From the IMG/VR virus record IMGVR_UViG_2548876857_000009: a stretch of 11,732 nt of DNA; one strand, given 5' to 3'. Below, one piece after another: positions 1,641-7,071 of the stretch. This DNA comes from a virus (Duplodnaviria > Heunggongvirae > Uroviricota > Caudoviricetes). The notes under the pieces were generated by a model. It searched no databases. It was not told the DNA's origin and was given only the letters and a program-made list of their open reading frames with translations. Position numbers and translations under genes: made by a program. The stretch's first letter is position 1; each line of letters begins with the position of its first letter.

Positions 1641-1775
1641 TAAATATTATATCGCTTTGATTTTTAACGATTTTGTTTAATTCAGTTTTTGTGCGTATAC
1701 CTAATCGTATACCAATGGCTGTAAGTTAATGTGAAATGAAAGCGCATTTTTACTTGGATTGATGCTATATCGTAC

Positions 1776-1910
1776 AGGAAAAAAAATTTTTTTTCGAAAG
1801 AACTGTTCACACTGTTCACCTTTCTGTTTTCTCCTTTTATTTCATAGTGATAGGTGGTGAATAATGGGTGAAGGGTGAACATTCGATTCTTCACCTCCGG
1901 CATTCTGCCG
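1776..1910. repeat. crr (cis replication region) direct repeat copy 1, with type-I iteron octamers
   Basis: Contains TGTTCACACTGTTCACC and the inverted GGTGAA...GGTGAAGGGTGAAC. Near-identical to copy 2 exactly 180 bp downstream (1803 aligns to 1983). Confidence 0.8.
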
Positions 1911-1955
1911 GTGTGACTCATACCGGTGATTAATCCTCCGCACTGAAATCACTCA

Positions 1956-2090
1956 GGAAGAAAAAAGTTTTTTTTGATTTGATTGTTCACACTGTTCACC
2001 TTTCGTTTTTCTCTTTTAATTTCAGTGTGATAACGGGTGAATATACGGTGAAGGGTGAACAGTGGATTGTTCACCTTCGGGGGATTCAGG
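1956..2090. repeat. crr direct repeat copy 2
   Basis: Same octamer arrangement as copy 1 at 180-bp period. Matches the P4 crr description (two ~120-bp direct repeats separated by ~60 bp) located just downstream of alpha. Confidence 0.8.
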
Positions 2091-2134
2091 GATGAAAAAA
2101 GACCGGCAGATGCCGGTCAGATGAGTCATGAGGG

Positions 2135-4468
2135 TCAGGTTGTTGCAGGGTCGTCACATTTTGGCAGCCAGTCGCCGTAGCTTTCCTCTTTCAGTGTCAG
2201 GTTGGTCTGTATCCCCTGTTTGGTATGGCGCTTCTCGTAATTCAGTCCGTATTCCTTCAGCATCACCGGCAGCCCCAGCCCGAACATTTTCAGGCTGAGT
2301 ACATTCCGGTAGCCGTTTGCCTCCATGTAGGCCAGATAGGCGTGATAGAGGTATTTACGGTAATTACGCGGGATGATACTGGCGTTCCCCATATACATGC
2401 CGCTGGTCTGCGGCAGGGTTTCCAGATAGCCGATAAAATCAAACGTCGGGTCGGCATCCCGTTTGATGTTCAGTGCCTCGTCTGAGTTCTGCTGGGACTG
2501 AAGCAGTGACCGGGCGAGCATCGGGTCGCTGAACTTCTGCATCAGGTGACGCACGATGACCGCCAGCTCGCGGGTGATTTTGTCCTTAAGCTGCGGGTCG
2601 CGCTCCTGCGGGGCTATCTGTTCCGGGAAGTGAATAATCACCCGCCGGCGTGACACGCCGCCGCTGCGGTCGGTGAAGCGCATCGGGTTATTGTTCACGG
2701 CCAGAATCACCGCCGGGATGTGCGTGGAGTATGCATCCCGGTATTTCGGGTCAACGGACACCGCATCGCCGCCGGTGATGGCCTTGAGTCCGGCACCGTC
2801 GCCGCTCCATTTTTCCTGGTCCGGCAGGCGTATCAGTGAGAAGCCAGTTAACGCGGCACGTTCACGCGGGGATTCCAGCGTCTCGATGGTGGCCGACGTG
2901 GCGTTATCCTCCCCGGCCAGCAGGGTGGCTATTTCGGCCATGATACTTTTGCCGCTGCCGCCGGGACCGGTCACCTCCAGAAAGAGCTGCCAGTCGTAGC
3001 GGTTTGCCAGCACCATAAACAGTGCGGCCAGAATCACGTCGCGTTTTTCCGCACGGCCACCGGCGGCACGGTCAAGCCAGCGCCAGAACGCGGGGGCGTG
3101 GGTTTCCAGCGTTTCCCCTTCCACCGGCGGGGTGAAATCCACATCGCACAGGGTGCGCATCCAGTGTGACGGACTGTGCGGGTGGAACGTGCCGTTCTGC
3201 GTGTCGAGCACGCCGTTACGAAAGCCAATCAGGCGGCGGGAGGGGGCTTCCTGCTGCGGAATAATCAGCTTCAGGGTGTCCACCACGGAGGCCACCTTCC
3301 CGGAGGAGAACGGCGCACGCAGCCGCTGAAACAGCCCGGCCACATCCCGGGCAAAGTCCTGTGGTGGCAGCACCTTCCAGACACCATTTTCATAACGGGA
3401 CAGAAGCTGGCCGTTGGCATCGACCGCGAGCGCCTCGCCGTAATGCTCATAGATACGCATGGCCTTTTCGCTGGTACTCATGGCGGAAAACTCCGCTTCG
3501 CTCATGGTGTCGAACGGGCTTTCAGCCGGTGGCCGGATGGCATCGTAAATGGCCTTACGGGTGGCTTCCCCGCCGTACTGCGTGAAGGCATCATTCCAGT
3601 CACCGAAGACCGGCGGCAGGGCAACAACACCTTCACACGCATCTGCGGCTGCGGCGGCTTTTTTCTGGCCGTCACCGCTGAGGTCACGGTCTGCGGCAAG
3701 GACAATCTGACAGGCCGGATGCTTCTGCCGGGCAAGGCTGGCCAGAGAAAAGAGGTTCACGGAAGAAAGCGCCACCATCACCGTTTCACCGGTCAGGTGA
3801 TGTACGGTAAGTGCGGTCGCGTATCCCTCCGCTATCCACAGACGTTTTCCGGCCTGATTCTGTCCTTCAAGGATGTGACAGGTGCCCCTGACCTGCCCGC
3901 CTTTCAGGGTGCGCTTACGGCCGTCAGCGCTGATTAACTGAAGGTTAACCAGTTCGCCGCTGTCGTCATACAGTGGCACCACAAGGTCACCGGCGCGCCA
4001 GCTCACGCCACCGGCTCTGTGTGTGCCGGTCAGCATCCGGCATTCCCGGCCGGGAAAGCCCTTGCGGGTCAGGTAGGCGTTACCGGTTCCGGTACGGGTT
4101 TTCGCCATCAGGGTTTGTGCCAGTGCGGCGGCGTTCTTCCGGGCAGCGTCTGTTTCAGCGCCGGCGGCGGCCGTCACTGCCGGGTCAGCCGGGGGCAGGC
4201 TGCCGGTCACGGCAGCCACCTTTGCGGCCGCGTCGGACGGGGAAACACCAAACACCTTTTCAACCAGTTTCAGGCCGTCACCGGCACCACACTGATTGCA
4301 GTACCAGGTGCCGCGCCCCTCCCTGTCATCAAAACGGAAGCGGTCACTCCCGCCACAGACCGGACAGGGCTGATGACGGTTCTTAAGCACCTGAATCCCC
4401 AGCGCCGGGAGAATACGCGGCCAGTGGCCGAGCGCATGGCTGACGGTGGCGGTTACGTTCATTTTCAT
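2135..4468 (-). CDS. alpha: P4 alpha-type replication protein: N-terminal zinc-binding primase fused to a D5/SF3-type helicase
   Basis: 777 aa, the same length as P4 alpha. N-terminal Cys motif CPVCGGSDRFRFDD...CNQCG; Walker A VTGPGGSGKS in the C-terminal half. RBS AAGGAGAA 8 nt upstream of the ATG at 4468. Sits between cnr and crr as in P4. Confidence 0.9.
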   Translation of the reverse strand: MKMNVTATVSHALGHWPRILPALGIQVLKNRHQPCPVCGGSDRFRFDDREGRGTWYCNQCGAGDGLKLVEKVFGVSPSDAAAKVAAVTGSLPPADPAVTAAAGAETDAARKNAAALAQTLMAKTRTGTGNAYLTRKGFPGRECRMLTGTHRAGGVSWRAGDLVVPLYDDSGELVNLQLISADGRKRTLKGGQVRGTCHILEGQNQAGKRLWIAEGYATALTVHHLTGETVMVALSSVNLFSLASLARQKHPACQIVLAADRDLSGDGQKKAAAAADACEGVVALPPVFGDWNDAFTQYGGEATRKAIYDAIRPPAESPFDTMSEAEFSAMSTSEKAMRIYEHYGEALAVDANGQLLSRYENGVWKVLPPQDFARDVAGLFQRLRAPFSSGKVASVVDTLKLIIPQQEAPSRRLIGFRNGVLDTQNGTFHPHSPSHWMRTLCDVDFTPPVEGETLETHAPAFWRWLDRAAGGRAEKRDVILAALFMVLANRYDWQLFLEVTGPGGSGKSIMAEIATLLAGEDNATSATIETLESPRERAALTGFSLIRLPDQEKWSGDGAGLKAITGGDAVSVDPKYRDAYSTHIPAVILAVNNNPMRFTDRSGGVSRRRVIIHFPEQIAPQERDPQLKDKITRELAVIVRHLMQKFSDPMLARSLLQSQQNSDEALNIKRDADPTFDFIGYLETLPQTSGMYMGNASIIPRNYRKYLYHAYLAYMEANGYRNVLSLKMFGLGLPVMLKEYGLNYEKRHTKQGIQTNLTLKEESYGDWLPKCDDPATT

Positions 4469-4482
4469 GGTGTTGTTCTCCT

Positions 4483-4803
4483 TCAGTGCAGTACCGGCGC
4501 TTTTATGTGACGGGCACAGAGTTCATCCATCACAACCAGCCCGAGAAAGGACAGCGACGGCGCGGCCTTCAGGGGGCCGGATTCCATTAAATCTTCCAGC
4601 AGGGCACAGGCTATCTGACGCCCTTTTTCCTCACCGTGCTGGCGCAGATAAAAGCCTTCCAGCTCAGCGGCGATGGCCGCCTCCAGTGATTCAAGGGTGA
4701 GATGCGGGTAGCGGTGCTGACGTTCGCACACGGTCAGCCAGGCACAGGCGACAGCACGACGGTAAAGGGCTGCGCGTAAGACGGGCGGTAAGGGTGTTTT
4801 CAT
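4483..4803 (-). CDS. cnr: Cnr-like copy-number regulator (P4 orf106 equivalent)
   Basis: 106 aa, immediately upstream of alpha on the same strand; RBS GGGAGG 8 nt before the ATG. Assigned by size and position as remembered for P4; no sequence memory to confirm. Confidence 0.6.
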
Positions 4804-4938
4804 TTGCTTTCCTCCCTGTGACAGATGACTGCATTCCGTGCCGGTTGCATTAACTGATAAGGCATATCTGCGTCTCCTGAAGACGTGCGTATCCCTGCGC
4901 GAATACGCACATTTAATTTTTCGGGTGTCGTTTTTTAA

Positions 4939-5394
4939 TTACAGATAATTGCGGTAACTGTTATCCGGGGTGATTTCCGGGTCAGGCTCCGTGCGGGGAA
5001 TTTCCCGCCATTCCCGCGCCACCGGTGCCGCCCGGCTGACCGGAACAGGGTCCTGCGGGTAAATATCCAGATATTTCTCCCGCCATTTCTGTAATTCCGG
5101 GTCTCCGGCCATTTCTTTCAGTACCGCATGCCGGTTTACGGGGCTGCGTTTAAACAGGTCAGGACGGTCACAGGTAAATTCCCGCAGAAAACGCCCCAGC
5201 GGGATGTCTGTGGTGCGCCCGTCAGCGAGGATACGCACAAGGATACTGAATTTACGGCGGTACGGGTTCCAGACAATGTCCGGGCAGCGGTACGGCATTT
5301 CCCACGGAATACCGTCTTCCAGAATGCCGACCACGGCCACATCGGGAAAACCGGCAGAACGGTAAATCTCACCGGGCTGGGGAAAATCAAACAT
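4939..5394 (-). CDS. Hypothetical protein, P4 orf151 equivalent
   Basis: 151 aa ORF in the position of P4 orf151, upstream of cnr. Its start overlaps the stop of the upstream ORF, suggesting operon coupling. Confidence 0.6.
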   Translation of the reverse strand: MFDFPQPGEIYRSAGFPDVAVVGILEDGIPWEMPYRCPDIVWNPYRRKFSILVRILADGRTTDIPLGRFLREFTCDRPDLFKRSPVNRHAVLKEMAGDPELQKWREKYLDIYPQDPVPVSRAAPVAREWREIPRTEPDPEITPDNSYRNYL

Positions 5395-5674
5395 GCGTCT
5401 TGTCTCCCCGGTCTTTCTGCTGGGCGAGAAAATCGCGGCACAGGCCTTTGGCTTTCAGCTCATTCAGCACAAAATCAATATCTTCATTCAGGTAGCTGAA
5501 AATATGCGGAATGTAGAGCTGATGCAGGCCGGAGAGTTCACGGTGAATCAAATCACCCCCAACAAACTGGGATACGGCGCTGGCGCGGTTGAGCTTATGG
5601 TAAGCCTCAATGCTGAGGTGTTCACGGGCGTCATGACGCGCTGAGACGGTCTGAGGGGCTTTTTTATTACGCAC
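5387..5674 (-). CDS. Hypothetical 95-aa protein, GTG-initiated; possible P4 epsilon (eps) equivalent by position
   Basis: The frame has no internal Met. GTG at 5672-5674 is preceded by GGAGG at 6-nt spacing and overlaps the stop of the upstream 65-aa ORF (GTGCGTAA). The eps name is a positional guess only. Confidence 0.5.
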
Positions 5675-5864
5675 GGGACACCTCCACCACCGGCAGACGG
5701 GCAGCAAGGGAGAGCACATAGTCACGGACAAGGGAACGGCGGGCGCTGCGTTCATCACCGGCGACGGTGCGAAGCATACAGATACGGGGATGACGGTCTG
5801 CGCGACGGACAGCCGCAAACACAAAGACAAATTCAGGGTGTGAAGGGGTAAGGGTTGTAGCCAT
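5667..5864 (-). CDS. Hypothetical 65-aa protein of the early-left operon (kil/eta region)
   Basis: ATG at 5862-5864 preceded by AAGGAG at 8-nt spacing. It is the 3' part of the ORF-track frame 5667..6302, whose upstream portion I regard as noncoding. Confidence 0.5.
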
Positions 5865-5929
5865 AAGGCAGTCTCCTTCGAGTAGCAAATAACTGCTATC
5901 GCCGGAGTTCCTACGCTCGATGGCGATAG

Positions 5930-6000
5930 CCCAGACGGGGGTAGGAATACCGGCCTCGAAGAATACCGGCCAGCCCGGAGGCTGCCCCGCCTGAGCTACC
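5930..6000 (-). ncRNA. Candidate CI-RNA-like immunity RNA (seqB-like element); approximate boundaries
   Basis: On the minus-strand transcript AUUCCUACCCCC (plus 5937-5947) is complementary to GCGUAGGAAC, which occurs upstream (plus 6150-6159) and downstream (plus 5907-5916). This is the seqA-seqB-seqC arrangement of P4 immunity. The region also has tRNA-like motifs (GGUAGCUCAGG, UUCGAGG), consistent with RNase P processing. No convincing ORF with an RBS. Confidence 0.3.
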
Positions 6001-6253
6001 ATTGACTCAGTGGCATAACATGCGATTGCGAACAGGATCATACCTGCACGGCAAACCACACGCCACACCATAATCTGGCGCTCTGTGGCGTTGATTGCGA
6101 CACAAAAAAAGACGCATGGCGCGTCATATGTCGCCTTCGAGTTACACGGGTTCCTACGCCCGGCTGCCGATTTTGCGGCAGCGGAAAAACTATATCCGCA
6201 AATGCCGGAAAAAGGCAAGCCAGAAAAAGGGACTTTTTGCAGAGCGGGCATCA

Positions 6254-6520
6254 TCATGCGTCGTACCCCCGTTTGCGTCCGGCAATGCGTCCGGCCATCC
6301 ATGCGGTGACTTCAGAGTGCAGCCAGGCCACATTTTTACCGCCAAGACTCACCTGCGGCGGAAATTCCCCCTTACGGATGAGTTCGTAGATGGTCGAGCG
6401 TGACAGGCCGCACAGGTGCATCACTTCCGGAAGACGCAAAAAACGCTCCTGTGTGATGTCCGGCTGCGGCATCAGTGGCGTCACAGGGGCGGGAGACGGG
6501 GAAGAAAAAACAGCTTGCAT
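6254..6520 (-). CDS. vis: AlpA-family DNA-binding regulator, Vis-like (P4 orf88 equivalent)
   Basis: 88 aa. Motif [48 protein letters not shown] is typical of AlpA/Vis HTH proteins. RBS GAGGT 7 nt upstream. It is the first gene downstream of the leftward TGT-N12-ACA dyad. Confidence 0.75.
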
Positions 6521-6622
6521 CGGGCTACCTCGTTAATGTCCATACAGCACCGGATAAGTCCGTCCGGCTTCGGGTAGCGCTTTATTTTGTGAATATTTTC
6601 AGCAGACGCAACAGGGGGAATT

Positions 6623-6640
6623 TGTTCCGGCAACCTTACA
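6623..6640 (-). promoter_or_regulatory. Candidate Delta/Ogr-dependent late promoter element (PLL-like) driving leftward transcription into vis
   Basis: TGT-tccggcaacctt-ACA (TGT, 12 nt, ACA). P2/P4 late promoters carry this dyad centred near -55, which would place the start ~50 nt upstream of the vis ATG. Confidence 0.45.
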
Positions 6641-6796
6641 ATGGCTGTGTGTTTTTTATCCATCCGGACTGGAAGGGTCTCAAAGGGTTCTGAAGGACCT
6701 GGAATTTTTTATAGTGAAATGCAAATTGTTTTTTCTTATTTATTTCAGTTAATTAATAAAAATAAACAGTAATAAACAGCATAAAAAGCCCATCAA

Positions 6797-6904
6797 CGGG
6801 TGAACAGTGGTGAACAGACGGTGAACAGTCATTACTGCGATTATTCACCCTTTAACTTACTGTATTACTTATCTTTTTTCTTATGGTGAACAGAGGTGAA
6901 CAGT
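6797..6904. repeat. ori-like iteron cluster (replication origin)
   Basis: GGTGAACAG three times in tandem (6798-6828), an inverted TTCACC (6845-6850), then GGTGAACAG twice (6886-6903): six octamers in an AT-rich context. The same octamer occurs in crr ~4.9 kb away, matching the P4 ori/crr arrangement. Confidence 0.75.
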
Positions 6905-6981
6905 AAAATATAAAAAAACAAACAGTAAGCCGGTTTTTCCTGCGACCTTTTCCTGGCTTGCCGGTCTGAGGATGAGTCTCC

Positions 6982-6999
6982 TGTGTCAGGGCTGGCACA
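6982..6999 (+). promoter_or_regulatory. Candidate Delta/Ogr-dependent late promoter element (Psid-like)
   Basis: TGT-gtcagggctggc-ACA dyad ~80 nt upstream of the sid ATG; possible -10 CACAAT near 7034-7039. Confidence 0.5.
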
Positions 7000-7071
7000 T
7001 CTGCAATGCGTCGTGTTGTTGTCCGGTGTACGTCACAATTCTCTCAACCTGAAGTGACGAGGAGCCGGAAA

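Follow-up and report, generated by a model that had tools for sequence, protein, structure and literature searches.

The crr of P4 and its counterpart in the window

The closest described system is that of the satellite P4. Its alpha protein reportedly binds type I iterons in both the origin of replication (ori) and a second region, crr, which is said to be needed in cis and to be common to the oriI and oriII replicons; further studies reportedly deal with both the binding and the cis requirement. Functional analogues, for which we claim no homology, can be seen in other clusters of initiator sites that lie kilobases from the start of replication and are needed in cis. In R6K the gamma-origin iterons act on the alpha and beta origins from afar, through looping mediated by pi, and the family of repeats of EBV oriP is an analogous remote cluster of initiator sites. 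Vibrio cholerae crtS can likewise be compared as a remote initiator-site cluster, although it differs in acting across chromosomes, and the proteins and motifs of R6K, EBV oriP and crtS are unrelated to those of crr.

The GenBank annotation of P4 reflects the cis requirement, since record X51522 labels 4291-4590 as 'crr (cis required region for replication)'. Within it the annotation places two copies of a 'crr 120bp direct repeat' (4291-4410 and 4471-4590) and ten 'ori type 1 repeat' octamers. In the open full-text literature we found no paper describing the function of crr: PMC9942202 merely mentions that crr was included in a cosmid, and 'crr' has 0 occurrences in the text of PMC8628076, a large comparative study of P4-like satellites.

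Here we compared with P4 a stretch of 11,732 nt (hereafter the window), in which a preliminary description had pointed to a repeated region near the left end and matched it to the P4 cis replication region. Judged from the sequence comparison, window 1781-2080 is very probably (about 95%) the crr of an integrated P4-like satellite prophage. Over this stretch, its alignment with P4 X51522 4291-4590 has 298/300 identical positions and no gap, and it continues gaplessly beyond crr (1781-2128 against 4291-4638, 8 mismatches, blastn E=3e-167 over 348 nt). The only mismatches inside the 300 nt are at 1845, where the window has T for G, and at 1911, where it has G for A; neither lies in an iteron, and every iteron position annotated in the P4 crr is kept in the window. 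The P4 match that had been claimed is thus upheld, both by the 298/300 identity over the annotated crr and by the ten annotated iterons at their P4 positions. The preliminary description had also proposed comparing the window with itself and aligning it to the P4 crr, and these comparisons gave 97/120 identical positions between the repeats and the same 298/300 with P4. Its identification was right in every essential, and the feature is an already known, textbook P4 element.

The likeness extends from the sequence to the layout. Like the P4 crr (X51522 4291-4590; X05623), the region in the window consists of two 120-nt units and a 60-nt spacer, carries the ten annotated type I iterons, lies at the same site beyond the alpha terminator, and has the same partners, alpha and ori. 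Apart from the two substitutions, the elements differ outside crr: the element in the window has another integrase, and the DNA to the left of its crr is unrelated to that of P4. For this window in particular the result carries little weight, as it confirms an apparently replication-competent P4-like satellite prophage with a textbook crr.

Repeat and iteron architecture

A repeat search over the whole window returned a 120-nt direct repeat family, D1, at 1781-1900 and 1961-2080 with 81% identity, by far the longest repeat family of the window. The start-to-start distance of the two units is exactly 180 nt, and a base-by-base comparison found 97/120 identical positions, with the 23 differences scattered; in 20 whole-window shuffles scanned at offsets of 60-400, the best 120-nt self-match was 52-56/120. 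The first unit (1781-1900, plus strand) is distal from alpha and corresponds to the P4 'crr 120bp direct repeat' at 4291-4410, and the second (1961-2080, plus strand) is proximal to alpha and corresponds to 4471-4590. The 60 nt between them (1901-1960) are not repeated. Compared in register, the repeat flanks agree at chance level, at 11/40 positions upstream and at 18/60 downstream, the latter being the identity of the spacer to the stretch after unit 2. One idea about this spacer, that it is an alpha-terminator relic of a larger ancestral duplication, was dropped: the local alignment of 1896-1960 with 2076-2150 scored 16, which 127/2000 shuffles matched, and is not significant. Each unit opens with an A/T tract, A6T8 at 1781-1794 in unit 1 and A6GT8 at 1961-1975 in unit 2. 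In an alignment of 90 distinct units, the columns of the A-run and T-run are mostly conserved at ≥75-90%.

The full iteron motif is the octamer TGTTCACC, which has 10 exact matches in the 11.7-kb window against 0.40 expected, a number reached in 0/200 shuffles. Five of these matches lie in crr (1813-2075), five in ori (6799-6902), and none elsewhere in the window. Each crr unit holds six iterons or near-copies of them, two direct, three inverted and one direct, where five are annotated in P4; both orientations are present in each unit, as TGTTCACC and its one-mismatch variants. In unit 1 these are the type I iterons TGTTCACA (1804-1811, P4 4314-4321) and TGTTCACC (1813-1820, P4 4323-4330) on the plus strand, then TATTCACC (1856-1863, P4 4366-4373), the iteron-like CCTTCACC (1867-1874) and the type I iteron TGTTCACC (1874-1881, P4 4384-4391) on the minus strand, and finally the type I iteron TCTTCACC on the plus strand (1888-1895, P4 4398-4405). 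Unit 2 repeats the series with TGTTCACA (1984-1991, P4 4494-4501) and TGTTCACC (1993-2000, P4 4503-4510) on the plus strand, TATTCACC (2036-2043, P4 4546-4553), the iteron-like CCTTCACC (2047-2054) and TGTTCACC (2054-2061, P4 4564-4571) on the minus strand, and TGTTCACC on the plus strand (2068-2075, P4 4578-4585); again all except the iteron-like site are type I iterons. The iteron-like octamer is without annotation in P4 in either unit, and its GGTGAA columns are conserved in the unit alignment.

With this inventory at hand, the remaining statements of the preliminary description can be placed. Two long direct repeats with an exact 180-bp period and scattered differences between the copies are indeed what the D1 units are. 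Its frame of 1776-2090 pointed to the right region and was slightly generous, the true limits being 1781-2080. It had counted TGTTCAC twice in direct orientation and GGTGAA three times inverted per copy, and both counts are right (TGTTCAC at 1804 and 1813 in unit 1 and at 1984 and 1993 in unit 2; GGTGAA at 1856, 1867 and 1874 and at 2036, 2047 and 2054, respectively). The sites that it gave all stand, but one direct site per copy had been overlooked, namely TCTTCACC at 1888-1895 and TGTTCACC at 2068-2075. In the same way, its reading of these sites as octamer-type was borne out, whereas the heptamer and hexamer that it listed fall short of the full motif, the octamer. It had also taken the repeats to be no assembly artefact, and rightly so: of 5426 complete E. 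coli genomes, 1126 contain the 300-nt crr, 1067 of them with at least 80% of the query.

The second cluster of these octamers lies at 6799-6902 on the minus strand, 4.7 kb from crr, and corresponds to the P4 'ori type 1 repeats' at 9310-9413. It consists of five exact TGTTCACC on the minus strand and one TTCACC on the plus strand at 6844. As in the P4 ori (ori1), the octamer is shared with crr, and the same alpha would be expected to bind both. The two clusters differ in arrangement. The iterons of the P4-type ori are about one helical turn apart and nearly all in one orientation (6799, 6809, 6820, 6885 and 6895), whereas those of crr are of mixed orientation with spacings of 9, 43, 11, 7 and 14 nt, and the whole block is duplicated.

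A lone TGTTCACG was also seen at 2692-2699, within the alpha coding sequence (gene nt ~1770). The TGTTCAC core at that gene position is kept in most of 80 relatives, and this match to the iteron core probably reflects coding constraint in the helicase domain.

Replication partners, prophage context and competing readings

Immediately to the right of crr lies the gene for alpha (2135-4468, minus strand), a 777-aa ORF with the Pfam domains Zn_Ribbon_Prim, Toprim, D5_N and Pox_D5; the protein combines a primase, an SF3 helicase and a C-terminal winged-helix origin-binding domain. Its stop codon is at 2135-2137 and crr ends at 2080. Between them, a terminator scan found a strong hairpin, the rho-independent alpha terminator (t-alpha), at 2101-2118 on the minus strand, with a stem of 7 pairs, 6 of them GC, and a T tail; the P4 record has the alpha gene at 4636-6969 and the alpha terminator 'talpha' at 4604-4628. 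The protein is full-length and identical to P4 alpha at 769/776 positions (99%). Its C-terminus matches PDB 1KA8, the solved P4 origin-binding domain, with E=3e-66, and all 7 substitutions relative to P4 fall outside residues 671-770, the stretch that matches 1KA8. This alpha is the protein expected to bind crr, an expectation that comes from the near-identity of the window's crr to that of P4. Likewise, the requirement for crr in cis would carry over to this element from the P4 annotation and literature.

The other replication parts are also in place. The gene cnr (ORF106) at 4483-4803 on the minus strand, for a negative regulator of P4 replication, matches Pfam DUF5375 with E=3e-63 and occupies the position of P4 ORF106; PMC8628076 supports naming it cnr. 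Open frames are kept in the late genes sid, delta and psu. The P4 immunity RNA system at 5919-6195 (minus strand) was recognised by the Rfam families for C4 antisense RNA (74 bits), isrK (72 bits) and the a1/b1 C4 targets (49 bits), and is apparently intact.

The mechanism with the best support is the one already established for P4: alpha would recognise the type I iterons at crr and ori through its C-terminal winged-helix domain, and occupation of crr and ori on the same DNA molecule would be what permits alpha-dependent, DnaA-independent initiation. Initiation would follow excision and circularisation of the element. The probable route is that alpha-alpha contacts bring crr and ori together, presumably by looping, and cnr would modulate the alpha-dependent initiation.

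The window as a whole is an integrated P4-like satellite prophage. Window 1781-9113 aligns in one piece with 4291-11624 of complete P4 (X51522 / NC_001609) at 97.4% identity, so that 7.3 kb are collinear with P4, and the P4 core set (int, psu, delta, sid, the immunity RNA region, epsilon and alpha) is present in P4 order. It includes P4-sized ORFs for a 151-aa protein (P4 ORF151), cnr, alpha, delta and psu, together with the C4, isrK and a1b1 RNAs and integrase domains. The prophage is apparently replication-competent, and activity of this particular copy would be predicted from the intactness of all its parts.

The homology with P4 starts exactly at 1781, the first base of crr and of its A/T tract, and the left flank is unrelated; this edge of crr coincides with a module-exchange breakpoint. 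The left end of the prophage lies at ~1618-1624, as placed by the start of the E. coli matches, so that crr begins ~160 nt away from it. At the other side, the element's own integrase (10521-11732) runs off the window and is 36% identical to P4 Int, and in a close relative the int gene adjoins ssrA. Since the P4 homology begins only at 1781, the integrase is this diverged and no alignment exists between the left flank of crr and the att-proximal DNA of P4, we assign crr to the replication module, as a part that does not depend on the integration module.

Four other accounts of the region were weighed against its reading as the crr of the prophage. Given that crr starts only ~160 nt from the left end, its repeats could in principle be accessory (arm-type) sites for the integrase or excisionase of the nearby attachment junction. 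This reading is ruled out by the swap of modules just described: crr is 99% common with P4 while the integrases share 36%, the P4 att-proximal flank does not align and close relatives sit at ssrA, the arm repeats annotated in P4 lie outside crr, and the motif that is repeated is that of ori. We give it practically no credence. Just as little can be given to the idea that the region encodes a product, either a protein or a structured RNA. A 79-aa ORF (1682-1921, minus strand) does overlap unit 1, and a 'hypothetical protein' is annotated at this place in RefSeq P4 and in some E. coli records. This ORF, however, has no Pfam match and no counterpart in unit 2, it runs out of the P4-homologous DNA, and relatives carry 1-2-nt indels in the unit; without a domain match and without conservation, it is likely a spurious gene call. 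As for RNA, the predicted folding of unit 2 is somewhat stronger than that of its shuffles (z = -3.1 and -2.8), whereas that of unit 1 is no better than chance (z = -1.4 and -0.8). No Rfam family matches crr, and the apparent stems are oppositely oriented iterons (inverted repeats I19 and I20). With no Rfam match and with z-scores that are inconsistent between the units, an RNA gene was rejected.

The other two accounts accept the descent from the P4 crr and differ on its role. An unlikely one is that the main role of crr is not a positive one but the negative control of copy number, through titration or handcuffing of the initiator as in P1 incA or F incC. Iteron clusters outside the origin are typically inhibitory in iteron plasmids, and a unit number of one or two among lineages is what would be expected of a tunable dose element; the P4 record nevertheless calls the region 'cis required region for replication', and P4 genetics is said to have shown a positive cis requirement, while the two roles are not mutually exclusive. 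Quite improbable, too, is the view that the region is a crr by descent which has become an inert relic in a decaying, immobile prophage. The element is bordered by an IS fragment and by what remains of another integrase element, a setting where decay is common, and crr-like units orphaned from any adjacent alpha occur in relatives (e.g. L027, L028 and L054). Against decay stand the replication parts, none of which is damaged (alpha with its 777 aa, cnr, the ori with five exact iterons, and the immunity RNA C4), the open frames of sid, delta and psu, and a crr that differs from the functional one of P4 at only 2 positions, both outside the iterons.

Several features of the flanking DNA were recorded along the way. 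A fragment of IS3/IS911 (1-242) abuts a tyrosine integrase that is broken into two ORFs, both on the minus strand, with the arm-binding N-terminus at 963-1451 and the catalytic domain at 225-872. Repeat D2 (71% over 77 nt) shows this broken gene to be a paralogue of the int that belongs to the element itself, and 1-1451 seems to be what is left of a second integrative element that sat in tandem at the same att site. Overlapping with the start of the broken integrase ORF is a perfect 15-nt inverted repeat at 1434-1472 (TAGGCCCAACGAAAA / TTTTCGTTGGGCCTA, with a 9-nt loop), and a terminator-like hairpin lies at 1544-1558 on the minus strand. At the other side of the element, a 328-aa ORF (9283-10269, plus strand) sits between psu/cos and int. 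In P4 this position is the variable 'hotspot' that holds gop/beta/cII, and it often carries anti-phage genes. The ORF has no Pfam match and no PADLOC match, and is a candidate for an uncharacterised cargo or defence gene.

Distribution and variation among relatives

All 2566 places at which crr was found in the E. coli genomes are chromosomal. The RefSeq features under these matches are mostly 'none', sometimes 'hypothetical protein' and once 'integrase', and crr itself is not annotated. An iteron signature downstream of alpha could thus mark the end of the replication module in P4-like elements, and could help to expose 'hypothetical protein' calls over crr that are spurious.

For a wider comparison, one genome per species was scanned with the alpha protein, which gave 80 loci from many genera of Enterobacterales, 77 of them with enough downstream sequence for counting iteron cores. 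Since the distance between ori and alpha varies (1.6-2.6 kb), a scan of the whole locus replaced a k-mer comparison of fixed ori and downstream windows. The hexamer TTCACC alone under-detects crr in diverged lineages, and the TGTTCAC core is the more general marker. These cores cluster at +50 to +137 nt after alpha and, in closer relatives, again at +230 to +317; they also cluster 1.6-2.6 kb upstream of alpha, which is ori. At least three TGTTCAC were found within 340 nt after alpha in 34/77 loci, against a background of 0.1 per 340 nt in alpha coding sequence. Among the alpha loci, the crr unit of ~120 nt is found singly or doubled shortly after the end of alpha. This layout does not hold for every locus: in 44/77 relatives, the 150 nt that follow alpha contain fewer than three exact core heptamers, and in these the iterons have diverged, or crr has been displaced or lost.

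Two units were found at 14 loci, where the alpha C-termini are 82-93% identical to that of the window, and one unit at 19 loci, where the median identity is 77%. In the two-unit relatives the period is 166-180 nt. Over 90 distinct units, column conservation reaches ≥90% in the A-run and T-run with which the unit opens, in the two direct iterons, in the GGTGA(A) core of each inverted iteron and in the closing TTCAC, and the sequence between them drifts with small indels (1-2 nt). Orthologous units of different elements are 84% identical when proximal and 82% when distal, whereas a proximal and a distal unit share 67%, whether they come from one element or from two; from this we infer that the duplication of crr predates the split of the sampled two-unit lineages, which span several genera. 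The two units of the window, 76% identical over a 130-nt frame, are more alike than those of its relatives, which would fit some homogenisation.

The eighth base of the iteron distinguishes a C-type octamer, TGTTCACC, from a T-type octamer, TGTTCACT. By the majority within each element, ori and crr are both of C type at 11 loci, both of T type at 7 and discordant at 4, in raw counts that ignore shared ancestry. T-type loci go with more diverged alpha C-termini (73-78% identical to that of the window). Such co-variation between ori and crr is what would be expected if a single protein reads both sites, with the same caveat of shared ancestry on the counts.

These comparisons suggest, tentatively and at odds that we put somewhat below even, that the crr unit, rather than being a peculiarity of P4, is a self-contained module of ancient origin common to all P4-like satellites. 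The module would open with an A/T tract, followed by two direct iterons and a T-rich spacer, and then by three inverted iterons and a direct one; many lineages would have one unit and the P4 lineage two, and the iterons would co-evolve with ori and the DNA-binding domain of alpha. What the sequences may add to existing knowledge is comparative and modest, namely the age of the unit and its varying number (one or two), the conservation of the A/T tract, and the co-variation of iterons and alpha. All three may bear on how bipartite origins are tuned. If the number of units or the A/T tract, possibly a bend or an unwinding element, tunes replication or copy number, it would be a new regulatory feature.

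Some loci depart from the common layout. Extra crr-like units with no adjacent alpha lie 1.2-2.3 kb beyond the alpha-proximal unit at five of them, in nt after the alpha stop at ~2060-2321 (L027), ~1276-1537 (L028), ~2081-2165 (L031), ~1878-1962 (L033) and ~1979-2063 (L054). These alpha-less units are probably orphans of decayed tandem satellites. At three further loci (L009, L032 and L036) the sole crr lies at a distance of 0.7-1.8 kb from alpha, a displacement that points to insertions between the two.
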